Below are positions 26,103-36,424 of a stretch of DNA of 64,000 nt, one piece after another. Position numbers and translations under genes: made by a program. Under the pieces are notes generated by a model. That model was not told the origin of the DNA and searched no databases. It worked only from the letters and a program-made list of their open reading frames with translations. How positions within the stretch are numbered: position 1 is the first letter of the stretch; each line of letters opens with the position of its first letter. The stretch comes from an uncultured Lachnospiraceae bacterium (GTDB taxonomy: Bacteria; Bacillota; Clostridia; Lachnospirales; Lachnospiraceae): the NCBI GenBank assembly GCA_910578715.1, contig CAJTRL010000014.1, positions 3,876-67,875 of the forward strand, given 5' to 3'.

Positions 26103-26187
26103 AATGAGGCGGTAAGAGACGGAACTGCTGCGGTGAATTGCAACAATAAAATTACATTCTCGAAAATATTGTGAAATCTGCACAATA

Positions 26188-26237
26188 AAACAGACTGTTT
26201 TCCTCCGGATGCGGTGATTAAACAGTCTGTTTTTTTG
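26188..26237 (+). terminator. Rho-independent terminator of the rdgB-yfcE operon
   Basis: AAACAGACTGTTT / AAACAGTCTGTTT 13-bp stem followed by a T-run. Confidence 0.55.
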
Positions 26238-26432
26238 TGCGTTTTTACTGACAGCTTATTTTGGGGCATGGAAAAGAAAGGTACTTTCTGTACCATTCCT
26301 AACCCCCACCGGAGAGTACTAAACTCGAAAATACCTCATTAAGTACTCTATGCGGCGCCCCCTTCCCCGACTCCAGGGGGACTGCAAGACGCGGCCGGGG
26401 AAACTTATATCATAACACTGTTTCCGCGTAAC

Positions 26433-27467
26433 CTATACCGGAAGCGCAAGGCTTTCCCTGTATGCCTTACTGCTGATACCACCGAGTATCTTACGCGGGT
26501 AACTGTTTATCCATGTTTCCACCATTTCCACCTGTTTCACTGACACATCATCGAATACCGTCCCCTTCGGGAAGAAACGCCTTATCAGGCGGTTGATGTT
26601 TTCATTTGTCCCGCGCTCCCATGAACTGTATGGATGGCAGTAGTAAACTGTCGTTCTGTTCCCTTCTGTGTATCTGCTTTTCTCGATTCCCTTACAGTCC
26701 AGAAACTCACAGCCATTGTCACAGGTGATGGTTTTAAACTTTTCCCGGAACTTTCTGCTGCCGTACTTTCTTTCAAGCATATTCAGGGCATGGACTACCG
26801 AAGATGACGTCCTGGCTTTCATCTTCTCAATGATTTCCTCCCGTGTCATTCTTTCAGAGAGGACAAGCAGACAGCCTTTTCCCTTCCCCTGTGCGCTGAC
26901 AACCGTATCCATTTCCCAATGCCCGTATTGTTTCCGGCCAAGGACAGCCGGGTCCCGTTCCTCTATGGAACGGCCCCTGCGGTTATTCAGGGAGACGGCG
27001 GAAGATTCTTTTTTCTTCTTACACTTTTTCTTTTTTACCGGGAGGTCTTTATTAGAAACATCGGCAAACAGTTCCATATCAAGATAATTGTAGACAGTTT
27101 TACAGCATAAAGTAGTTGAAAACTGAATCCCCTCATTTTTCATATATAAAATAAGGGCTTCAGGAGAATATTTCATATCTTTTATCATATATGCAATGAA
27201 TGCGGCAAATTCATAATCGGAGCCTATTTTCAGGTTGCGGCCGCGGTTAGATACGGATTTCTCATAGACCAGCTGGGCATAATCTGCCTTATATACATAA
27301 TGCTCTGCAAGAAGCGAATCCAGCTGCTTCACAGTGCCGCGTTCTATCTCTTTCCGAAGTGTATGGTATTTTATATCAAGCCGTTCCGCGATATAAGAGC
27401 GGCTCTTTTTTTCCTCCAAAAGTATTTCTATTTTGTAACGTTCTCTTTCTGTAATATATTTTCCCAT
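26433..27467 (-). mobile_element. IS30-family transposase gene (IS ends not resolved)
   Basis: 344 aa from MGKYITERERYKIE. N-terminal HTH and C-terminal DDE region (HWEMDTV ... TCDNGCEF ... YCHPYSSWERGTNEN) typical of IS30. GAGGAGG sits before ATG 27467. Confidence 0.85.
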
Positions 27468-28002
27468 AAAGACATACCTCCTCTTTTTTCCGAGTCTGTC
27501 ATAAAAATAACAGCTTATAAAGGGTATATGAACGCTGGCGCGCCCTTTACAAGCCGTTATTTTTATGCGGCTGAAAATCCGCGTTATCTCCGGTTCCCGG
27601 ACCGTGAAAAAGTTTCCTGGCTGAATCATGACGGAAAAACCTGTACGCTGCCGAAGCCGTCCGTTTTTGAAACTGCCCCTTTTTCATCCCTTCCTGTTCT
27701 TCCTTCTGTCTCCGCATACCGCTTTCATCAGATTTGCTTAAAGCATCTTAAATGATACGGCTGAAAAAATCAAGCACCGTAAAAATTTTTAAAAGACAAA
27801 AATTTTTATCTATTTTCCTGAAGGAAAATTACTTGATTTTTCCATCCGCATCATTTAAAAGCAGATGCACGCAAACCCGACGAAAGCGATACACGAAGCC
27901 AGAAGAAAGAAAAGGAGATGATAAGAAAAGGAGCATTTTCAAAAACTGTATAAGACGCACCCCTCAGAAGAGCTCATCCAAAGCCAGAAAGGGAAAAATG
28001 AA

Positions 28003-28035
28003 AAACGATGGCCTAACGGCGGAACGGGGAGAAAG
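28003..28035 (+). repeat. 33-bp perfect direct repeat, copy A (leader of ORF 28045)
   Basis: AAACGATGGCCTAACGGCGGAACGGGGAGAAAG, identical to 28247-28279. Ends about 10 nt before the start codon. Confidence 0.9.
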
Positions 28036-28044
28036 GAAAAGAAC

Positions 28045-28239
28045 ATGAACAAAAAAGAAAGAAAACAGTTGGAAGAAATGGCAGTCATGAAGATGGGAAC
28101 AACACCATATTCACTGGTAAATGATTCTACCGCATACAGAGCCGGATATATCAGGGCATTACAGGATTTACAGATAATAGACGGACTATCAGCGGCAAGG
28201 ATGATGATAGAAATAGAAAAAATGGACTGGAAAAATTAA
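28045..28239 (+). CDS. Hypothetical phage protein
   Basis: 64-aa ORF preceded by repeat A, which includes the SD GGGGAGAAAGG. Confidence 0.5.
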   Translation: MNKKERKQLEEMAVMKMGTTPYSLVNDSTAYRAGYIRALQDLQIIDGLSAARMMIEIEKMDWKN

Positions 28240-28246
28240 AGATTAG

Positions 28247-28279
28247 AAACGATGGCCTAACGGCGGAACGGGGAGAAAG
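28247..28279 (+). repeat. 33-bp perfect direct repeat, copy B (leader of ORF 28289)
   Basis: Identical to copy A, offset by 244 bp. Confidence 0.9.
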
Positions 28280-28288
28280 AAGAACGAT

Positions 28289-28582
28289 ATGACGATGGAA
28301 GAATTATTAAAAAGAATGAGACTGACAGAAAAGGCACGGTGTTGTCAGAATGAAGAATACAACGGAATATACGGGATTCTGGAATCATGGCATACAAACA
28401 TGCAGACACAAAAACATGATATAGACTACTACAAATATCATCTTGAAGGCGCTGTTTTTGGATTATGTGCGGCACATTTCATCACTTTCAAAGAATTTGA
28501 ACAGCTGACAAAAGAAATAAACGAAACTTACAGAACATGTCTAAGAAAACTATTTGACACAGAGAAAGGAAAAAGCCTATAA
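28289..28582 (+). CDS. Hypothetical phage protein
   Basis: 97-aa ORF preceded by repeat B. Confidence 0.5.
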   Translation: MTMEELLKRMRLTEKARCCQNEEYNGIYGILESWHTNMQTQKHDIDYYKYHLEGAVFGLCAAHFITFKEFEQLTKEINETYRTCLRKLFDTEKGKSL

Positions 28583-28607
28583 TATCCCCAAGAAGGGGGC
28601 GGGCAGA

Positions 28608-28772
28608 ATGGAAAAGATGGGAATGACTGACAACCAGTACAAAGATTTTATAGAAGGCATTAAAGAAGATTTAGAGGAGCTGAACGAGTATAAGGAAGCC
28701 GGGGACAGCATGAGGTATGAAAAGAAATACAACAGGCTTATGGACAGACTGGAAAAAGCCCTGAAACGGTAA
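28608..28772 (+). CDS. Hypothetical phage protein
   Basis: 54 aa from MEKMGMTDNQYK. AAGGGGGCGGG lies upstream. Predicted helical and charged. Confidence 0.45.
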   Translation: MEKMGMTDNQYKDFIEGIKEDLEELNEYKEAGDSMRYEKKYNRLMDRLEKALKR

Positions 28773-28782
28773 CAGAAAAACA

Positions 28783-28807
28783 AAAGAGTAGGCGCGGCCT
28801 ACTCTTT
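28783..28807. terminator. Bidirectional hairpin between convergent genes
   Basis: AAAGAGTAGGC-gcg-GCCTACTCTTT, an 11-bp perfect stem between stop 28772 (+) and stop 28815 (-). Confidence 0.6.
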
Positions 28808-28814
28808 ATCTTTA

Positions 28815-29804
28815 TTATTCAAAAGGAATATCCGGGTAATCTTCCGGAGAATGGAACCCGTAGAAAAAATCATGTACCGATTCATACCGGAGAAGACCAT
28901 TTTCTCCGAAGGTCTTGACAACCCTGATGCGTCTTAAAAACGCATTCCATGTTTCCTCATATTCACGCTGGATGCTGACATACTGGTCTTTTAAGGACAT
29001 ATTGCTTGTAATATATACTTTTGTGTAACAAGCAACTTTATTGTTGTAACGGCATGGGAGGTCAAGCGGGTAGCCGTCAAGAAAATTCAGCATGTCCTGT
29101 ATTTTAATGTTTGAATGAAATTCCTCAAAAATCAGCACATCCTGTCCTTTATAATTATCAAAGGGGTGTTTGTAGTCCGTAACACGGTATACGTTTTCAT
29201 ATCCGTAGTGTTCCATGATGGTCCTTGTCTTTCCGGTGGCGGTTTTCCCGAACCAGTATTCGACTTCCAGCTCCCGGAACCTGTTTTTAAACTCTTCCCC
29301 CCGGACAACCTGGCGGCAGTTTTCTATCTTTTCAAGCTGCAGCATATAGGCCGGGTTACTTTCGAGAATCTCGTAATTGCTAAGTCCGTCCTTAATCATG
29401 GTGTAGAGCGCATTCAGGTCGTTGCGCTTTCCCTGTTGTTCCACAGGGCATTCGCCAAACTCTTCAAAGGTGTTGTAAAGGTTCGTTTCTTCCTTGTCGG
29501 TGTCTTTGTATTTTCCCTCTTTGCGTATGTAATCGCGGTTTTCCTGTGTGGTACCCCGGCAGTAGTCAATGTGGGCAGTCGGAAACTTCTTTTTTATCTG
29601 CTGGAAAGTAAACGGAGATTTACGGAAAAGAAAAAGATGCGTGTGGTATGTACCTTCTTTTCCGACTTCATCGCACATACACCAGTAATCAATCCCCTTT
29701 ATCGTGGAGAGGGCGGCTTTTATGTTATCATGAGAAAACCCGAATTTCTCCGGATTGTTGAAAGTAAGAAGCCACTTTCTGGACTGTACTTTGTCATTCA
29801 TCAT
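28815..29804 (-). CDS. Rolling-circle replication initiator, CRESS-type (HUH endonuclease + SF3 helicase)
   Basis: Motif I WLLTFNNP, motif II YHTHLFLF, motif III DYIRKEGK (YxxK), Walker A GKTATGKT, Walker B VLIFEEF, motif C YITSN. 329 aa. Confidence 0.85.
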   Translation of the reverse strand: MMNDKVQSRKWLLTFNNPEKFGFSHDNIKAALSTIKGIDYWCMCDEVGKEGTYHTHLFLFRKSPFTFQQIKKKFPTAHIDYCRGTTQENRDYIRKEGKYKDTDKEETNLYNTFEEFGECPVEQQGKRNDLNALYTMIKDGLSNYEILESNPAYMLQLEKIENCRQVVRGEEFKNRFRELEVEYWFGKTATGKTRTIMEHYGYENVYRVTDYKHPFDNYKGQDVLIFEEFHSNIKIQDMLNFLDGYPLDLPCRYNNKVACYTKVYITSNMSLKDQYVSIQREYEETWNAFLRRIRVVKTFGENGLLRYESVHDFFYGFHSPEDYPDIPFE

Positions 29805-29813
29805 TTATCCCCC

Positions 29814-29919
29814 AAAAAATACAGAAGTTGTAAAAATACAGAAGTAAATACAAAAAAAATACAAATGAAAATGCCGTATTTTCAACAAAAACTGCAAAAA
29901 AATACAAAATACAGAAGTT
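29814..29919 (-). repeat. Iteron cluster between ori stem-loop and rep
   Basis: AAAATACAGAAGT x3 (29814-29829, 29832-29845, 29907-29919). The shorter AATACARAW occurs 6 times. The last copy abuts or overlaps the stem. Confidence 0.65.
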
Positions 29920-29950
29920 CACAGGGGTAATACTGGACCCTGTGAACTTC
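29914..29950 (-). other. Putative rolling-circle origin stem-loop with nonanucleotide
   Basis: GAAGTTCACAGGG / CCCTGTGAACTTC is a perfect 13-bp stem. The 11-nt loop reads TCCAGTATTAC on the rep strand (compare circovirus NAGTATTAC). It lies about 110 nt upstream of rep. Confidence 0.65.
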
Positions 29951-30081
29951 CGCGCCCTTGACAGCAGGGACCCGCGCACTGACCCTGAAAACCTGACGGC
30001 GGTGTACCACCGCCGCCAGTCAAGGTTAAACCGTGCGCCCCTACTGTAAAGGGTACGCTTGCGCCGCTTCACGCCGTCCGT

Positions 30082-30132
30082 CTGACACAGCCCGGCGGGG
30101 CGGCAAGAGCCTTACCCGCCGCACTGTGTCAG
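30082..30132 (-). other. GC-rich long hairpin directly after the Zot-like gene (terminator / packaging signal / complementary-strand origin candidate)
   Basis: CTGACACAG 30082-30090 pairs with CTGTGTCAG 30124-30132. Inner pair GGCGGG/CCCGCC. A further hairpin GGCGGTG..CACCGCC lies near 30000. Confidence 0.45.
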
Positions 30133-30818
30133 CCGAACAGCTTATAGCTGTCGTAAAAGGCATAATACTTTTTACCACGGAAGAACTGCGTGCCTTCCTT
30201 TGCGTCCTTTTTCCGTCTGCTCCCTTTTAACGTGTAATCCCGGAATATCCGTATAAAAAGTTTGCCGCCGCAGAAAAAGCCCATGAGACGGCCGATAAAC
30301 TTCATGGACGAGATACAGCGGCATTCAATTTCTTTCTGTAACAGTTCCCGTATCTGCTTGTCAATGTCGCTGTCATCCTGTGCAATCAGATAAACCGTAT
30401 ACCCCAGCTTCCGGTGCTGGCGGAAAAAAGTGCACCAGGAAAGACGGTCACGCACGTTATAGGTGCGGGAATTGAAGAGGTCGGCGCATTCATCCAGCAC
30501 CAGAAGGGTCCGGCCCTTGCTAAGACGCTTTTTATCTGCCATGTCATGAAAGTTAAAGGCAAACCCGTAAAGACCGTCGATATAGGAAAATTCCCTTTTT
30601 TTCGGGTCGATGCCCTTATAGGCATTGGACAGCCATTCGGAATTGGGAACGTAAAGAAATTTTCCCAGTTTTTCCGGGTGGCGGCACCTGGAAAAATAGT
30701 CCGTGTTTATTTCAAAGTTTGCAATGACATTTTTTCCGCGTTTCAACGCTTTGTAGACATATTCGGCAGTCGTAAGGGATTTCCCGCTTCCGGGTCTTCC
30801 GTTAATGAAATATATCAT
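30129..30818 (-). CDS. Zot/pI-like inovirus assembly ATPase
   Basis: MIYFINGRPGSGKS (Walker A at the extreme N-terminus), LLVLDE Walker B, and a C-terminal hydrophobic segment. 229 aa. Confidence 0.85.
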   Translation of the reverse strand: MIYFINGRPGSGKSLTTAEYVYKALKRGKNVIANFEINTDYFSRCRHPEKLGKFLYVPNSEWLSNAYKGIDPKKREFSYIDGLYGFAFNFHDMADKKRLSKGRTLLVLDECADLFNSRTYNVRDRLSWCTFFRQHRKLGYTVYLIAQDDSDIDKQIRELLQKEIECRCISSMKFIGRLMGFFCGGKLFIRIFRDYTLKGSRRKKDAKEGTQFFRGKKYYAFYDSYKLFG

Positions 30819-30836
30819 AACAATACCCCCATTCTG

Positions 30837-31130
30837 TCAGCCGCCAAGAGCCCCGGCTCCGGCGGCGATGGTAAGTCCGGCAGATACGACTTTCTGGAGG
30901 ACAAAATCAACGACAATCTTTTTCGTGAGAACAAAGGCATAATAAACAAGCACACAGTCAAGCCATGCGAGCATCATGACGGAACAGGTGTCAAAAGGAA
31001 GAAACCAGTTAAGATATGGAAGAAAATCAAAGTCTGTCATGAGCTGGTCAAACATGACCTGAAAAGGACTCGTGGGAAGCAGTTCAAAAATGGCAATAAA
31101 AATGATTTTAAGGATATTAATCATAATCAT
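30837..31130 (-). CDS. Small polytopic membrane protein (pVI-position minor coat candidate)
   Basis: 97 aa with 3 hydrophobic segments. Sits between the pIII-position gene and the Zot gene. ATGA overlap with the upstream stop. Call is by position only. Confidence 0.45.
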   Translation of the reverse strand: MIMINILKIIFIAIFELLPTSPFQVMFDQLMTDFDFLPYLNWFLPFDTCSVMMLAWLDCVLVYYAFVLTKKIVVDFVLQKVVSAGLTIAAGAGALGG

Positions 31131-32842
31131 TCCTCCTTTCTCATGGCGACAACCTTAAAAGTCAGGTTCATCAGATACATGCCGAAGAGCATGGAAAAAA
31201 GGGCGCGGGAGAGATTGCTCAGCACCTGGAACATGGCCATGTCAACGATGATGCGCTCGTCGATGCCGAAACGTTTTATGACTAACGGGAGTTCAAAGCG
31301 GGGAGCCTTCGGGGTGTCGGCCAGCACCTGGAAAACATGGCGGACATCCCAGGGGATGGAAAAGGGGAACTTATATTTCAGTGACCCGGCGACGTCTCCG
31401 AGGGAATCGTCTATGGTGGGGACAAGGTCGTTGGCCGGGAGCTCAAGTTCCCATGTTTTATCCTTATCGCTTGCTATTGGGTCATCTTTATCACCAGTAG
31501 TTGGCCTGTCTATTGCCGGGTCATTTAACGGATTGTCAATTACATCATCCCAAGTCCTGTCAACGGCATCTATCCACGCATCACCATAAGTATAATCAGG
31601 AATATCCAGCGGCAAATCAAAGGTGCCATCCAAAATACCCGCAATCGTTTTGTCATAAACATCCTGAACACTGTCTATAAGGTCCTGTAAATCACCAAGC
31701 CCGACCCACGGAATATCATCGGCCCAGTCATTAACGCCAGCACTGACACCGGAACCATATGCACCAATACCGTGGTCAGAAGCATTCGCTATCCGCTCCC
31801 ATAATTCACCGGAAAAGTTCCCGATAGTGGGCAAATCATTATTGTCTATAATCGTATCTGTAATATCGGTAGAATAATTCAGGGCTCCGGTTACGGCACC
31901 AGTGCCTTTTAAATAGGCTTCAGCATCAATTTGACTGGAAAATACCGGACAGTTTACAGAATAAGAATGTGATATATTACCAAATACACTAGAACCAGTA
32001 ATTCCAAAGGTGTCACCGGAAAATATCCGGTTTTCATGTATTTCATGCTGGACTAATTTACCATTATCATAAACAGACAGCTCGAAAGTACCTTGTACAG
32101 CTGATAATTCTCCATTATATAATTTATACAATGTTAAACCCCAGTAATTATTTAACTCATTATAGCTATATATACCGCAGACAGGCACAGACAAATCAGC
32201 CGTAAAATGTCTATCCATGTTTGTAACATGTCCTTCATTATAACCAGAAAGTTTTTTATAAGAAACATTAAAATCAAATTCATACGGAAACGGCTCCCCC
32301 GACCACTGCTGTGCAACTGCTTCCGCAGTCATCGGGGTCGCAAAGGAGTCAGTAACACCCGCAATCGTAATATTTTTTGCCACAACTTCCGAAACAAAGT
32401 CTTTTGTAATTCCTATCAGTTCCGGACAATACCGGGCATAGATTCCGGTAAGAGAGTCAACCGCCGAATCATGATAATTCTTTAAAGAATCCATAAATTC
32501 ATCCAGAGGAATGGACTGTACAGCTTCCGCCGCAGAATCATAAAGATAAATTGCCTTATCAATTATGTATTCTTTCGTTTCAATCTTTGCATCCAGATAA
32601 TGCATATAACTGTCTATTACGGCATCTTTATTAGCAACAGCTGCTCCGCCAAGTCCGGTTGCCGCCAGAAGTGCGGCTACCAGTTCCCAGGCTGCATCCG
32701 CTGCAGCAGCTCCGGCAATGACTTCCGCTCCGGTAGCATAAACACGGCTGATATCATTTGCTGAAATAAAAGCATCACCAACAGTCAGTGAAAGAAGAAG
32801 AACAGATAAAAATATTGCAAATATTCGCTTAAACCTGTACAT
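31127..32842 (-). CDS. Secreted, C-terminally anchored large protein (pIII-position adsorption protein candidate)
   Basis: ATG 32842 lies 9 nt after AAGGTGG (the ORF track starts at TTG 32851). Signal peptide MYRFKRIFAIFLSVLLLSL and a C-terminal TM. Call is by position only. Confidence 0.5.
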   Translation of the reverse strand: MYRFKRIFAIFLSVLLLSLTVGDAFISANDISRVYATGAEVIAGAAAADAAWELVAALLAATGLGGAAVANKDAVIDSYMHYLDAKIETKEYIIDKAIYLYDSAAEAVQSIPLDEFMDSLKNYHDSAVDSLTGIYARYCPELIGITKDFVSEVVAKNITIAGVTDSFATPMTAEAVAQQWSGEPFPYEFDFNVSYKKLSGYNEGHVTNMDRHFTADLSVPVCGIYSYNELNNYWGLTLYKLYNGELSAVQGTFELSVYDNGKLVQHEIHENRIFSGDTFGITGSSVFGNISHSYSVNCPVFSSQIDAEAYLKGTGAVTGALNYSTDITDTIIDNNDLPTIGNFSGELWERIANASDHGIGAYGSGVSAGVNDWADDIPWVGLGDLQDLIDSVQDVYDKTIAGILDGTFDLPLDIPDYTYGDAWIDAVDRTWDDVIDNPLNDPAIDRPTTGDKDDPIASDKDKTWELELPANDLVPTIDDSLGDVAGSLKYKFPFSIPWDVRHVFQVLADTPKAPRFELPLVIKRFGIDERIIVDMAMFQVLSNLSRALFSMLFGMYLMNLTFKVVAMRKEE

Positions 32843-32909
32843 TTTTGCCAACCACCTTGTAAATTTCAGCAGATAACTTATTATGACTATAAGGAAGGAG
32901 TGTGTACTT

Positions 32910-33080
32910 ATGGAAAATATTATAAGTTATCTCACGGTTTATTTTTCAGATATCTATCATGTGATTTTCTGGCTGCTGGTTCTGATAGTAGTCCTATTTG
33001 AGTATGTAGGGAAAAAAATCAGAAACAGCAGTAGGTTAAAAATATGGATGAAAAAACATAATATCGGTAAAAAATACTGA
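32910..33080 (+). CDS. 56-aa membrane protein on the opposite strand inside the structural module
   Basis: Strong SD AAGGAAGGAG 8 nt before ATG 32910. One TM helix and a basic tail (KKIRNSSRLKIWMKKHNIGKKY). Confidence 0.4.
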   Translation: MENIISYLTVYFSDIYHVIFWLLVLIVVLFEYVGKKIRNSSRLKIWMKKHNIGKKY

Positions 33081-33081
33081 T

Positions 33082-33213
33082 TCACATCCCATTCTCATCC
33101 TCTTCCTGTTGTTCCCGCACAATCTCCGTTACGATGCAGAGCACCGTCAGAAAGCCGAATAACGGGATTGCAAGAAGTGCCGCTATAAAGATGACTGCTT
33201 TCAGGACTGCCAT
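33082..33213 (-). CDS. 43-aa single-TM protein (minor coat candidate)
   Basis: MAVLKAVIFIAALLAIPLFGFLTVLCIVTEIVREQQEEDENGM. GGGGGA upstream. Not in the ORF track. Confidence 0.4.
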   Translation of the reverse strand: MAVLKAVIFIAALLAIPLFGFLTVLCIVTEIVREQQEEDENGM

Positions 33214-33470
33214 GTTTTATCCCCCTATTCTTTATCTATCAAACCTCTGTGGATGAAGGCAAACATTTTGTATGGAACTGCTTCATCCAGTTTGCGTCAG
33301 AACATCCTTTGTCAGGCATATTTTTTTCTTATCTTTTTATCCGGCAGATATGGAAAAAAATAAAAAGAGTACGCCGATTGTTCTGATATTGATATGTTAT
33401 AAAAAATAGATTTTCGATTTTCCCCGAATGACCGGAAACGCTGTGACACGTCCCCGGCCTGTTCCGTTTC

Positions 33471-33632
33471 CTAGTTTGCGATGGAACGGAAGAAATTGAT
33501 TCCCAGACGGATTGCGAGGAATAATCCCATAATCGCAAGACCAATCGGGAGCGCAGTCGTTACCATTGAAACAACGTCTGTCTTGACTGCCGTTAAGGCA
33601 GTCTCAAATGCAGTAGTCATGGCTTCACTCAT
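33471..33632 (-). CDS. Major coat protein candidate (pVIII-like)
   Basis: 53 aa, not in the ORF track: MSEAMTTAFETALTAVKTDVVSMVTTALPIGLAIMGLFLAIRLGINFFRSIAN. Acidic amphipathic N-terminus, hydrophobic core, basic/aromatic C-terminus. GGAAAGG upstream. Confidence 0.6.
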   Translation of the reverse strand: MSEAMTTAFETALTAVKTDVVSMVTTALPIGLAIMGLFLAIRLGINFFRSIAN

Positions 33633-33671
33633 GATAATGTACCTTTCCTTTCCGCATTCCCGGAAGGAATG

Positions 33672-33839
33672 CTATTTTATATTTAAAAGGCTGGCCGCCT
33701 TAAAAATACCGTAGCCTAACAGTTCCAGAATTGCGCCAAGGATAAGGCCCGCCGAAAAGCCGGACCTTGCAAATGCCGTGACATATTCCCCCGCCCGCTG
33801 TAAGATTTCCTGTATATCCAGTAATTCCACTGTACCCAT
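33672..33839 (-). CDS. 55-aa single-TM protein (minor coat candidate)
   Basis: MGTVELLDIQEILQRAGEYVTAFARSGFSAGLILGAILELLGYGIFKAASLLNIK. Starts 4 nt after the upstream stop. Not in the ORF track. Confidence 0.45.
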   Translation of the reverse strand: MGTVELLDIQEILQRAGEYVTAFARSGFSAGLILGAILELLGYGIFKAASLLNIK

Positions 33840-33843
33840 TTCA

Positions 33844-35055
33844 TCAACCCACTTTCATACGCTGGAAGAAACCGTGCGCCACCGTGTAGCCGAGCGTCAG
33901 GATGAGCACGAATCCGACTGCAACATCCGATGCCAGCATCTCTTTCTGCAGAGTCTCATTCTGCTGCTGTATGGCGACGGTTTCCTGTAAGAGTTCCGCG
34001 TTCTGTTCCTGTAAGAGCATCATTTCCGCACGGTATGCCGCATCCGCTCCGGAAATATCCTGTATTCCGGCGTCGATGCTTCCGAGCAGTTCCAGTATTT
34101 CTTCCATTGTTTCATCCGGTATTTCCGGCTCTTCCTGTCCGGTATCAGAATCATAAACCAGAACACCTTCCACGTCCGTCACCGTTGCGATAAAGCAGTA
34201 GTCCAGATTTCCCGCACTGACGGCGCGCTGCATCTCTTTGTAGTCAATGCTGAACATCTCCGGGCCGGAAAAGGTCTTTGTAACAAAGGTCTCTTTTCCC
34301 AAATCCGGGGGAAAGATGCGGTATTTTACAGTGACTGGGTAGCTGTATGTTTCGTAACCGTTAAGGGAAAGGCCGGGAAGGCTGTATTCCTCCGAATCAT
34401 AAACACATTCCCCTTCCGCATCATAAACGTAGCGCACATAACAGTAGCTTAAACTCCCGGCCTGTACATCAGCCTGTAAGTCCCGGTAGGCCCCGTTAAA
34501 TTCTTCCGGGTCCGTATAAGTGCCGGAAAGACCCGTTTCACTTCCGAGTGCCGGGGGAAAAATACGGTAAACAACACTTACGGGATAGTCATAGTCTTCA
34601 TAACCGCTTATGGGAAGGCCGGAAGGTTCCGGGACGTAAGACTGTGCGGCCACACTCTCCGAAAGTTCCCGGACTGCGGCAAGCAGTTCATCAAAATTCT
34701 GTGTATTTTCCAGGAGTTCCGCTATGGGCGGCCGGATATCCGCCGGAAGTTCCCCGGCACTGTCTGTTTCCGGCGGTGTTACCGGAACAGGAGGCTGTAC
34801 AGAAGGTATATCATTCGCACTGACGGTGGGAAGCACTGCATTATCCGGTAAAGGCTCCGGCACAGGTTCCATACTTTCCGTACCGCTTTCTTCCAGTCCT
34901 GTATTATCTGTTTCAGGTGTTCCGGTATCCGTTTCAGTTTCCGGAAATTCCCCGGTACCTGTTTCAGGTCCGGCAGATTCTTCCATATCCGTTTCAGGAA
35001 GCTCTTCCACGGAAGTGCCGGCAGATTCCTGTTCATTCTCAAGTTCTTCACTCAT
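33844..35055 (-). CDS. Acidic 403-aa protein with an internal tandem domain duplication and a C-terminal TM anchor
   Basis: E/T/P-rich N-terminus, two copies of about 76 aa (aa 146-222 and 228-303), a coiled-coil-like Q/E stretch, then VAVGFVLILTLGYTVAHGFF. Confidence 0.6.
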   Translation of the reverse strand: MSEELENEQESAGTSVEELPETDMEESAGPETGTGEFPETETDTGTPETDNTGLEESGTESMEPVPEPLPDNAVLPTVSANDIPSVQPPVPVTPPETDSAGELPADIRPPIAELLENTQNFDELLAAVRELSESVAAQSYVPEPSGLPISGYEDYDYPVSVVYRIFPPALGSETGLSGTYTDPEEFNGAYRDLQADVQAGSLSYCYVRYVYDAEGECVYDSEEYSLPGLSLNGYETYSYPVTVKYRIFPPDLGKETFVTKTFSGPEMFSIDYKEMQRAVSAGNLDYCFIATVTDVEGVLVYDSDTGQEEPEIPDETMEEILELLGSIDAGIQDISGADAAYRAEMMLLQEQNAELLQETVAIQQQNETLQKEMLASDVAVGFVLILTLGYTVAHGFFQRMKVG

Positions 35056-35088
35056 TCCCAGACCTCTTTTCCTTTTCCGTACAGTCCC

Positions 35089-35499
35089 TTACAGGATGTA
35101 CGTTGTATAGACCATGATATGTTCATCCGTGATGCGAAGTACCGAAAGTTCCGCCGGAAGAATACTGCGTCTGCGTAAGCCCGACAGCATTTCGCTGATT
35201 TCCGTGCTGACCGTTTCTGCCACGGAAGCAGAATCTTCCGGTATGTCCGTGTGCATGGCGGCGGGGATGATACGGTAGTCAAAATACATTTCCCGGCGTT
35301 CCGGTGCGGGTATATTCCCCGGCGGAGCCGTTATGACAGCCGGGAAAGGGTACGGATATGCTGCGGCCGGTGTAAGGGCCTTTTCATCCGTCTGTTCTTT
35401 TTTCATTCTGCGTGATGCAAGCACCGGCATAAATCTGTGACGGAATATCAGAAAAATAAAAACCATTACAACAGCCATATAGAGTATGGTACGGTCCAT
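35089..35499 (-). CDS. N-terminally anchored hypothetical protein
   Basis: 136 aa with TM ILYMAVVMVFIFLIF. No family recognised. Confidence 0.5.
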   Translation of the reverse strand: MDRTILYMAVVMVFIFLIFRHRFMPVLASRRMKKEQTDEKALTPAAAYPYPFPAVITAPPGNIPAPERREMYFDYRIIPAAMHTDIPEDSASVAETVSTEISEMLSGLRRRSILPAELSVLRITDEHIMVYTTYIL

Positions 35500-35595
35500 C
35501 TGTATACCTTCTTTCCGTGGGAGAACCCACTGTATGATAATAAAAGATATGTCCCGTCAGAATCCATATCCTTCGGAAACACATCTCTTACGGGA

Positions 35596-35883
35596 TTACT
35601 TGCCGTTTTCCTTTGCATCTTTTCCGGCGCCGTCATTCGGTTTCAGTACAACGACGTCCGAAAGCGTCGCTTTTCCCTCGAATCCCGGCTCGTACATGAA
35701 ATCGCACACATCTCCCGGTTTCAGGTTATAATCCTTATATGAAAACTCGCTTCCGACCGTCATTCCCAGACAGTCGCTGTTTTCCCTCTCGTAATCCGTA
35801 AAGGCTTTCTCATAGTAGTACTGGCTGAACTCACGCCCGTTTTTTGTCTTTGCTTTCTTGATTCCGGTAATCGTTACTTTCAT
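35596..35883 (-). CDS. 95-aa protein, ssDNA-binding (pV-position) candidate
   Basis: Size, beta-rich composition and position upstream of the coat genes resemble inovirus gene V. There is no sequence-level recognition. Confidence 0.4.
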   Translation of the reverse strand: MKVTITGIKKAKTKNGREFSQYYYEKAFTDYERENSDCLGMTVGSEFSYKDYNLKPGDVCDFMYEPGFEGKATLSDVVVLKPNDGAGKDAKENGK

Positions 35884-35949
35884 CTCTTTTTCCTCTTTTC
35901 TTTCTTCTCTGCTTTTTTTCTGTTCTTTTTATAATAAATGTGCACTTTA

Positions 35950-36189
35950 TTATCCCTTTTCAAGTTCTTCCTTCGCTATGGCAATAAAATTTTCCAAATC
36001 ATAAATTCTCCGGTTATAATTATCCAGTATTTTTTTAGCCCGTTCATACTGCCAGCTGAGAAATACTCCTTCCTGGCTTTCCTATTTTTTCTTGAGTTCC
36101 TTTTCTGCCCTGTCAATACACTCCCGCAAATCTCCACTATATGTAAAACTTACCTGTCCGTTTTTATGTTTCGCTCTGAATCCTGGCAT
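35950..36189 (-). pseudogene. 79-codon reading frame interrupted by one in-frame TAG (36082-36084)
   Basis: ATG 36189 lies 10 nt after AGAAAGGCGG and gives MPGFRAKHKNGQVSFTYSGDLRECIDRAEKELKKK, then TAG. The frame stays open for 43 more codons with no internal start. Confidence 0.3.
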
Positions 36190-36235
36190 ATTTCAAATTC
36201 CGCCTTTCTGCATGTTTCAGTGACAATGCAAAATT

Positions 36236-36424
36236 TTACCATGCGTCTGCCGCATACAGTTTCCCGGTATTCATATCCGCATACAATTCATATCCGGAAT
36301 AGTTTATGTCGGTCCCTATGTAGGCCAGTTCCGTCCGGAACAGGTCATCCTTCTCTATGTGCTGTATGCACCGTATTTCTCCGTTTACCAGTACCGCTAC
36401 CGGGTAGGTCATTATCCTAATCAT
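36236..36424 (-). CDS. Hypothetical small phage protein
   Basis: 62 aa from MIRIMTYPVAV. ATGA overlap with the upstream stop. Confidence 0.45.
   Translation of the reverse strand: MIRIMTYPVAVLVNGEIRCIQHIEKDDLFRTELAYIGTDINYSGYELYADMNTGKLYAADAW

Follow-up and report, generated by a model that had tools for sequence, protein, structure and literature searches.

A CRESS-type replication module in an integrated inovirus-like element from an uncultured Lachnospiraceae bacterium

The stretch of DNA analysed here, referred to as the window, comprises 64,000 nucleotides of contig CAJTRL010000014.1 from an uncultured Lachnospiraceae bacterium, and all coordinates are window positions. It harbors an integrated inovirus-like element of about 11.0 kb (26134-37171, minus strand). 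Within the element lies the gene rep (28815-29804, minus strand), which encodes a 329-aa replication protein (Rep) of the pCRESS2 type with an HUH endonuclease and an SF3 helicase domain. Upstream of rep there is a predicted plus-strand origin, a hairpin with a 13-bp stem and the 11-nt loop TCCAGTATTAC (29914-29950, minus strand). Rep and origin stand between the gene of a Zot-type morphogenesis ATPase and that of an IS30-family transposase.

The Rep protein and its lineage

A first-pass annotation, made from the sequence of the window, had assigned to this open reading frame (ORF) the motif series of eukaryotic CRESS-virus Reps in canonical order. All six motifs are present in that order: LLTFNN (aa 12-17), HTHLFL (54-59), YIRK (92-95), GKTATGKT (186-193), LIFEEF (224-229) and ITSN (265-268). 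Across 20 Rep homologues of 62-88% identity there is no variation at the key residues T14, N16, N17, H54, H56, Y92, K95, G186, K192, E227 and N268. The HUH endonuclease domain (29505-29783, minus strand, approximately aa 8-100) contains motifs I, II and III with the putative catalytic Tyr92, and the SF3 helicase domain (28905-29342, minus strand, approximately aa 155-300) contains Walker A and Walker B as well as motif C. R291 and R292, in the sequence FLRRI, are also invariant in the same 20 proteins and form, by analogy, a probable Arg finger.

Profile searches recovered the predicted HUH domain and fell marginally short for the helicase. Pfam Viral_Rep matches residues 9-96 (E 1.3e-11, 45 bits, cut-off 26), and Pfam RNA_helicase reaches 20 bits on residues 184-265, 1.5 bits below its cut-off of 21.5. 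No family for Rep was found in PHROGs and NCBIfam. Among PDB sequences, the best match is the full-length Rep of porcine circovirus 2 (PCV2; 7lar, E 2.1e-14, residues 8-278), and in this alignment all Rep motifs line up with their PCV2 counterparts. An AlphaFold model of Rep (mean pLDDT 78) was compared with solved structures by Foldseek. The modelled nuclease resembles that of the faba bean necrotic yellows virus (FBNYV) M-Rep, with a template modelling score (TM) of 0.83 and a root mean square deviation (rmsd) of 2.4 A, as well as the PCV2 and duck circovirus nucleases in complex with single-stranded DNA (ssDNA) (TM 0.76-0.78). The modelled helicase resembles the PCV2 Rep ATPase domain 8xms (TM 0.74, rmsd 2.7 A), and the full modelled chain matches the vientovirus Rep with an E value of 1.7e-12. 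The identification of the 329-aa protein as a CRESS-type two-domain Rep (HUH + SF3) is supported by profile, by the sequences of solved structures and by predicted fold. Selection on rep is given as nonsynonymous (pN) and synonymous (pS) divergence, as saturated synonymous sites preclude dN/dS. Strongly purifying selection is indicated, because pS is saturated at about 0.8 and pN is 0.13-0.31.

Relatives of this Rep are numerous. One search returned 2,962, mostly in Lachnospiraceae-type assemblies, and a second gave 513 clusters (50% identity, E <= 1e-30). Reference proteins for the pCRESS groups were reconstructed from an alignment in the supplement to Kazlauskas et al. 2019. By BLASTP, the window Rep has 46-56% identity over full length to the pCRESS2 references (E down to 1e-137), 30-32% to pCRESS3 and 26% to pCRESS1. 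Plasmid p4M, included in pCRESS3, is also its best PLSDB match. The protein shows the pCRESS2 signatures, namely the glutamates of Walker B (LIFEEF) and the asparagine of motif C (ITSN), and its motif II is HUH, not HUQ. On the grounds of this identity and of the Walker B and motif C signatures, it is a pCRESS2 Rep. The earlier description of a Rep of the eukaryotic CRESS-virus type is therefore kept for the two-domain architecture and dropped as a family membership, because the protein falls in the bacterial pCRESS2 group. Phylogenetic placement among CRESS and pCRESS Reps, a step proposed together with the annotation, sets it inside the pCRESS2 clade in a neighbour-joining tree built from simple distances, without support values.

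In this tree, Reps associated with Zot and Reps associated with an integrase occupy separate parts of the pCRESS2 clade, and it is among the former that published pCRESS2 references are interspersed. Furthermore, two references closely match Reps of Zot-bearing viral contigs, SCH60086.1 with 94% identity to one and WP_023977019.1 with 87% to another. Part of the catalogued pCRESS2 'plasmids' are therefore probably inovirus prophages.

The origin hairpin, iterons and intergenic region

The 13-bp stem with an 11-nt loop that had been annotated upstream of rep was confirmed. Its arms (29938-29950 and 29914-29926) pair perfectly over 13 bp, and 109 nt separate the stem's 3' end from the rep ATG. 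Folded as ssDNA, the hairpin has an energy of -16.4 kcal/mol (z = -6.0), and none of 200 shuffled sequences folds as well. The loop contains the nonanucleotide CAGTATTAC (29927-29935, minus strand). Most relatives have TAGTATTAC at this place, which is the nonamer consensus of the nanovirus/circovirus type. With the nick position taken from circovirus, nanovirus and geminivirus biochemistry, cleavage is predicted between T7 (29929) and A8 (29928), and the origin stretch GGGTCCAGTATTACCCC is regarded as the predicted nicking substrate of Rep. The nonamer shares its strand with nearly all element genes, which is to be expected of the strand that an inovirus packages.

Relatives were collected as 23 loci from GTDB genomes and 58 IMG/VR loci from an alignment-based scan (individual loci are given L numbers). 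A scan of IMG/VR with peptide patterns of a single Rep returned no close relative. A hairpin with (T/C)AGTATTAC in its loop is found in 19 of the 23 GTDB loci, 45-450 nt upstream of rep and on the rep strand; among the remaining four, one is truncated and three have no such motif. The hairpin is also present in the complete circular genome of bajarodino virus 13 (L024) and in the majority of the 58 IMG/VR relatives, some with a Rep identity as low as 38%. The octamer AGTATTAC is unchanged across all aligned relatives. Its bare count in the 64-kb window is not significant (2 matches, 0.73 expected), so that its weight rests on the position in the loop and on conservation in the relatives. In 15 distinct sequences, 97.8% of the cells are paired and 8 of 9 pairs show compensatory change, and none of 500 shuffles and no slid register gave anything comparable. 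These values come from an ungapped arm-loop-arm alignment with the best-pairing loop offset chosen, a slight bias towards structure that the effect far exceeds in the slid controls. A plain MAFFT alignment of the hairpin regions misplaced gaps and was dropped for pair counting. Conservation of stem-loop and nonamer in homologous elements, on which the annotation had made its reading depend, was thus borne out by the 19 loci, the covarying stems and the invariant loop.

Some variation of the origin region was observed. In L001 (77% Rep identity), the hairpin lies about 450 nt upstream of rep (L001 334-788), with an additional stretch that bears an apparent small ORF between iterons and rep. L019, L020 and L022 (51-53% identity), whose reps stand beside a tyrosine integrase gene, have in common a small hairpin, GTTCTAAT-tcgtaga-ATTAGAAC, about 340-350 nt upstream. 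Plasmid p4M (NC_003527, L090) has no AGTATTAC anywhere in its sequence. The nonamer is therefore a trait of the pCRESS2 lineage and not a general pCRESS trait. An FtsK/SpoIIIE gene is found directly upstream of repA in p4M.

Three copies of a 13-mer had been annotated as iterons between stem and rep. Copies and positions are correct: ACTTCTGTATTTT occurs on the minus strand at 29816-29828, 29833-29845 and 29906-29918, the last copy overlapping the stem arm (0.13 copies expected; at least three in none of 100 shuffles). The repeated unit, however, is not the 13-mer but the 7-8-mer TGTATTT(T), in the 8-mer form TGTATTTT, with six copies within 29816-29913. ACTTC is a separately conserved flank, found directly 3' of the stem in every locus. 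After ACTTC, the proximal iteron pair TGTATTT-TGTATTTT abuts the 3' arm of the stem (29899-29913, minus strand). The hexamers of porcine circoviruses are likewise short direct repeats that abut the 3' arm of the stem. The distal cluster (29816-29863, minus strand) has copies at 29856-29863, 29846-29852, 29833-29840 and 29816-29823, and stops 4 nt short of the rep ribosome-binding site. In every relative, a tandem 8-mer pair is found at a fixed position 3' of the stem, with a sequence specific to the lineage: the window and L006 have TGTATTTT, L001 and L007 have TGTAACAT, L002 has TGAAACAT, L003 TGTAGCAA, L011 TGTACCAT and L024 TGTCGAA. Further copies occur near the rep start of the relatives. 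Such 8-mers, changing with the lineage, make the pattern that would be expected of specificity-determining iterons co-evolving with Rep.

Other signals surround rep and the origin. There is a promoter-like site for rep (29856-29885, minus strand) composed of TTGAAA, an 18-nt spacer and TATTTT, with 9 of 12 consensus matches, and its -10 hexamer falls within an iteron. A bidirectional terminator-like hairpin with an 11-bp stem and a T-run on each strand lies just past the rep stop (28783-28807, both strands). Directly 5' of the origin hairpin, a second long hairpin of about 100 nt was found (29953-30055, minus strand). Its base, CCCTTTACAGTAGG...CCTGCTGTCAAGGG, is kept in 7 loci and its GC-rich tip varies by lineage; of the 31 pairs predicted by RNAalifold, 13 show compensatory change. 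The 150 nt upstream of the stem fold with a z-score of -5.8, and the full Zot-rep intergenic region with one of -10.7. The second hairpin is a candidate signal that may serve as complementary-strand origin or in packaging. A further hairpin is present at 30079-30133.

The inovirus-like element: genes, relatives and integration

The annotation had described the replication module as joined to an inovirus morphogenesis module, and the genes around rep agree with this. The pI/Zot-type morphogenesis ATPase (30129-30818, minus strand) matches Pfam Zot (E 3.5e-17, 62.9 bits, cut-off 20.3) and PHROG 1675, 'protein I of M13' (E 1e-24). A 53-aa major-coat-like protein (33471-33632, minus strand) has an acidic N-terminus, a single hydrophobic helix and a basic C-terminus; it matches PHROG 1646 'major coat protein' (E 1.1e-5) and has homologues of 57-58% identity in the relatives. 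Between these two genes lie those of a 97-aa hydrophobic protein (30837-31130, minus strand), pVI-like by position and found beside Zot in L002-L005, L010 and L024, and of a 574-aa protein (31127-32851, minus strand), pIII-like by position, with hydrophobic N- and C-terminal segments and syntenic homologues. Neither of the two gave a profile match. The 403-aa acidic protein (33844-35055, minus strand) has PET-rich repeats in its acidic N-terminus, a C-terminal hydrophobic segment and an internal duplication of about 80 aa (YPVSVVYRIFPPALG / YPVTVKYRIFPPDLG). It has no match in the Pfam, PHROG and NCBIfam scans and is possibly a minor coat or receptor-binding protein.

A 95-aa protein conserved in the relatives (35596-35883, minus strand) is a candidate for an OB-fold ssDNA-binding protein. 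Its AlphaFold2 model is a five-stranded barrel (pLDDT 85.5). The top Foldseek matches, weak at E 0.03-0.1 and TM 0.4-0.58, are all ssDNA-binding OB folds, including the gene V protein of Ff phages, and a comparison with PDB sequences gave nothing useful. As modelled, the protein may be an ssDNA-binding (SSB) protein with a gene-V-like role. At the other side of rep, the IS30-family DDE transposase (26433-27467, minus strand; 344 aa as called, the ORF reaching 27629) was identified by NCBIfam transpos_IS30 (224.8 bits, cut-off 80), Pfam rve and HTH_38, and PHROG 4646 (E 7e-108). A transposase is found in the matching position in L024, L001, L003, L005, L010 and L025-27.

Apart from rep, the Pfam, PHROG and NCBIfam scans of the element proteins detected no replication gene. 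They also detected no jelly-roll capsid-like gene, the element carrying a filamentous-phage module instead, and a secretin gene is not present in it, which would be anticipated if the host is monoderm. In L002-L005, L010 and L025-27, the genes likewise follow the order SSB-like, coat, pIII-like, pVI-like, Zot, ori, Rep, transposase. This order is also found in bajarodino virus 13, a circle of 9,273 nt from a faecal virome deposited as Inoviridae.

In IMG/VR, 45 of the 58 contigs with Rep relatives also carry a Zot-like ATPase. Drift of the iterated Zot profile to generic P-loop ATPases was considered for the divergent matches: Pfam confirmed Zot in 5 of 10 and FtsK_SpoIIIE in none, the other five being unconfirmed. 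In L012, L015, L016 and L019 (45-53% Rep identity), a tyrosine integrase and a helix-turn-helix (HTH) repressor are adjacent to rep, Zot is missing and the elements are small, a context that fits the 'integrated plasmid' of Kazlauskas et al. Most of these four still have the TAGTATTAC hairpin. Small IMG/VR contigs of 2-3 kb (L081-L089) encode Reps with 37-47% identity, beside the Mollicutes pCRESS2 reference in the tree. They contain no Zot-like gene and no AGTATTAC, and could be small plasmids or capsid-bearing CRESS-like viruses.

Read in the orientation of the rep strand, the element is 5'-TGCGGGTTGTAAAATT ... TTGTTGCAATTCA-3'. The transposase-side terminus (26134-26156) is TGAATTGCAACAATAAAATTACA on the plus strand. 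The far terminus (37147-37171), TGTAATTTTAATTTTACAA followed by CCCGCA, forms an imperfect inverted repeat with the opposite end, with 16 of 19 positions. Nine insertions end alike at ...TTGTTGCAATTCA and their flanks diverge straight after it. The far end, which reads TGCGGG-TTGTAAAATT..., was placed by the inverted repeat, by the junction in L024 and by flanking repeats at five sites, with an uncertainty of about 6 nt (37165-37171). In the L024 circle the two termini are 14 nt apart. The element in the window ends about 100 nt upstream of a tRNA-Pro gene.

Direct repeats of 16-17 bp with unrelated sequences flank five independent insertions, those of L025, L026, L010 and L005 and that at the window locus: CCATTTTTTTTGTACAC at the window locus and TATGCTGCACATACGT, CCGCCTGATTTTACGCA, AGAACAGACTTATGGC and TTATCCTTTGCGCTTTT at the other four. 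In all five, 4-6 variable nucleotides separate the duplication from the conserved TTGTAAAATT terminus. At the window locus, one 17-bp copy, GTGTACAAAAAAAATGG, remains at 37172-37188 and the other is absent from the window. Since the duplications differ between sites, the whole phage genome is inserted as a transposon, with a long target duplication, little target specificity and no fixed att site. Classical IS30 duplications have 2-3 bp, so that 16-17 bp is atypical; IS1630, an IS30-family element of mycoplasmas, makes long target duplications. A transposase acting as an independent insertion sequence inside the prophage was rejected, since no second terminal repeat is found by its 5' end and the duplications flank the entire element.

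Identical Rep and related elements are found at nine different flanks. The window Rep also occurs, with identical DNA, where the element has inserted elsewhere (L031, a second site), and this points to recent mobility. Samples in which the element is present include ERZ27288481 and SRR10479019. Among the relatives, one metagenome-assembled genome (Lapin-008__bin36) contains two copies of a related phage, 94-96% identical, at different sites (L003 and L010), and the element carrying Rep P0018 (L025-L027) occupies three chromosomal sites in different samples.

Known systems, interpretation and alternatives

Several known systems share parts of this organization. Kazlauskas, Varsani, Koonin and Krupovic (2019) reported that no pCRESS element encodes viral structural proteins, that these elements have FtsK-like ATPases and are integrated by tyrosine recombinases, and that inovirus Reps have no helicase domain (PMC6668415). 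Their paper and its supplements mention no nonanucleotide, stem-loop or iterons for pCRESS (PMC6668415). The window element is like pCRESS2 elements in Rep lineage, signatures and Clostridia/Lachnospiraceae hosts, and differs from them by its Zot/pI, coat-like protein and IS30 transposase. The combination of an inovirus with a CRESS-type Rep has been recorded earlier in brief form, in a figure legend, a paragraph and GenBank records. According to the legend, in Roux et al. 2019, the inovirus rolling-circle replication (RCR) family iPF_00203 is also found with the S3H domain typical of eukaryotic ssDNA viruses (PMC6813254). The paragraph, in Tisza et al. 2020, describes ctbe30 and ctbc27 from macaque stool, which carry a CRESS-type Rep alongside genes for Zot, RstB and inovirus-like capsid proteins and have matches to prophages in chromosomes of Clostridia type (PMC7000223). 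The portions of these two reports that treat the combination do not describe an origin, iterons or transposase-mediated insertion. The GenBank records are the bajarodino viruses (PQ006184 and others), inoviruses with such Reps; Rep identity is 60% for bajarodino virus 13, in which Zot is followed by ori, Rep and transposase as in the window. A full-text literature search found no dedicated study of such phages and none on bajarodino viruses.

Circoviruses and nanoviruses (PCV2, FBNYV) resemble the window element in the two-domain architecture and fold of Rep and in the loop nonamer (T/C)AGTATTAC. They differ from it in host, which here is bacterial, in the jelly-roll capsid gene, which is absent here, and in size, with 1-2 kb per circle against 9-11 kb; Rep identity to solved viral Reps is below 30%. 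The second iteron cluster over the rep promoter is closer to geminiviruses than to circoviruses. The element, in a bacterial chromosome and with a filamentous-phage module, is not a member of Cressdnaviricota/Floreoviria, despite the like Rep and origin; these viruses have small circular genomes, a jelly-roll capsid gene and eukaryotic or, in smacoviruses, archaeal hosts. Plectroviridae of Spiroplasma and other inoviruses with IS30 or IS3 transposases are described as Rep-less and replicating by transposition. They are like the window element as filamentous phages with an IS30-family transposase and varied insertion sites, and unlike it in that the latter has a dedicated RCR Rep with an origin in addition to the transposase. 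In Ff phages (M13, f1), the plus strand is nicked in a structured intergenic region, followed by rolling-circle replication, coating of the ssDNA and extrusion through pI; their gpII has no helicase domain and depends on the host Rep helicase. The predicted origin of the window element, as judged from sequence, is likewise set amid further hairpins of an intergenic region, but the Ff origin sequence is unrelated to it. The size of 11 kb, for an element recognized by its genes, is within the range of about 5-15 kb of circular inovirus ssDNA.

We consider it very probable that the region is the CRESS-type rolling-circle replication module of an integrated filamentous phage of about 11 kb in a Clostridia chromosome. 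On the double-stranded replicative form, Rep would bind the iterons and the hairpin would be extruded. Tyr92 would then cut the coding-sense strand in the loop, between its T7 and A8, and remain attached to the 5' end, and a host polymerase would extend the 3'-OH as the Rep hexamer helicase unwinds the DNA. After one round, Rep would cut and reseal the regenerated hairpin, which would free a circular plus strand. This strand could become duplex again, perhaps from the adjacent conserved long hairpin, or alternatively could be coated by the OB-fold-like protein and extruded via the pI/Zot ATPase into the 53-aa coat. Rep may repress its own gene through the iterons over the promoter. Integration is a separate process, in which the phage-encoded transposase of the IS30 family inserts the entire circular genome in the manner of a transposon, with 16-17-bp duplications at varied sites.

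Some observations weigh against this interpretation. The site of nicking, the binding of iterons, autoregulation and the formation of virions are predictions from homology and anatomy. L019, L020 and L022 are related loci without the AGTATTAC hairpin, and the rep promoter-like site is weak, as the consensus scan found 4 sites with 2.2 expected. The match of the 53-aa protein to Pfam Phage_coatGP8 (E 2.8e-4, 21.4 bits) is under the cut-off of 24.6, and the pIII-, pVI- and SSB-like labels come from position, composition or weak fold matches. The window copy is without 20 nt (CCATTTTTTTTGTACACCCG, rep-strand orientation) at 26133/26134, which include one copy of the 17-bp duplication. Eight other contigs of the window locus (L028-L030, L091-L095) keep the 20 nt and both copies; with one target-duplication copy missing, the window copy could be slightly damaged at one junction. 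Finally, an exact pattern over the predicted junction found no empty integration site in the Joint Genome Institute (JGI) metagenomes, and 24 of 24 contigs with the neighbouring host protein carry the prophage or end there.

The missing 20 nt and the lack of an empty site would suit a window prophage that is a fixed and decaying remnant, with Rep and origin intact by descent and inoperative. This is unlikely, given that all ORFs, the termini and the origin are intact, that the copy in L031 speaks for recent mobility, and that assemblies break at the element end, as expected of a multi-copy or variable element. The weak coat-protein matches and positional labels, for their part, could be read as those of a capsid-less element of plasmid or transposon type, in which the Zot-like ATPase does not serve virion extrusion and no virus is made. 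The movement of the element as a transposon fits such a reading, as does the classification of pCRESS2 as plasmids with FtsK-like ATPases and no structural genes (PMC6668415). The ATPase, however, is specifically of the pI/Zot type, with no FtsK_SpoIIIE match reported, and the 53-aa protein has the inovirus coat layout together with a PHROG coat-family match. Gene set and order fit inoviruses of Gram-positive hosts, and the relatives include complete faecal-virome circles deposited as Inoviridae and many IMG/VR contigs, so we regard a capsid-less element as quite improbable. It is very improbable that Rep and origin are those of a distinct element, a small integrated plasmid of pCRESS2 type nested in or beside an unrelated inovirus prophage that does not use them: distant relatives without Zot (L012, L015, L016 and L019, in small integrase/HTH elements) show that the rep/ori module exists on its own, and rep, which has a promoter-like site and a terminator to itself, makes an autonomous transcription unit, but Zot, ori, Rep and transposase are adjacent in constant order at many independent loci and in the complete 9.3-kb circle, no integrase, att-like repeats around rep or other replication initiator were found within the element, and the target duplications bracket the entire 9-11-kb unit.

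We found no published description of a conserved nonamer origin with lineage-specific iterons across phage and plasmid-like carriers, nor of the overlap of pCRESS2 'plasmids' with inoviruses, and both are possibly new. The transposase-mediated insertion with 16-17-bp duplications also goes beyond the published record, as far as we found. A broader statement, that the complete CRESS-type replicon is the standard replication module of true filamentous bacterial viruses that form a large and diverse clade in gut Clostridia, is put forward tentatively and may well prove too wide. If it were true, part of the pCRESS2 'integrated plasmids' would be such prophages, and a cis-acting origin like that of nano- and circoviruses would have pre-existed in bacterial elements. 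Some eukaryotic CRESS lineages could then descend from a bacterial virus and not from a plasmid. The occurrence of such a Rep and origin in filamentous phages also bears on whether the replication module of eukaryotic viruses was donated by plasmids or by phages. A taxonomy commentary of 2026 states that the two-domain Rep is unseen in viruses outside Floreoviria and otherwise occurs only in bacterial plasmids (PMC13595969). Contrary to this commentary, the two-domain Rep, a megataxonomy hallmark of eukaryotic CRESS-DNA viruses, would not be exclusive to Floreoviria among viruses; this prophage and its many relatives have it in filamentous phages, and the likeness reaches as far as the origin, with its loop nonamer and co-varying iterons. 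A bacterial system with a culturable host would serve the genetics of CRESS-type initiation, including iteron recognition, hairpin extrusion, nicking and helicase loading. In practice, Rep-based screens of faecal viromes will take bacteriophages for 'CRESS viruses'.

Minor features were found in the remaining parts of the element. A direct repeat of 66 nt, with 80% identity, occurs on the plus strand (27994-28059 and 28238-28303). It constitutes the leader and ribosome-binding site of two small ORFs on the strand opposite to rep (28045-28239 and 28289-28582), both placed between rep and the transposase gene and both without a family match, and the variant in L031 is without one repeat unit. 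At the far end of the element, two Cys-rich ORFs of 77 and 141 aa with CxxC-type motifs (36421-37090, minus strand), also without a family match, may encode regulators.

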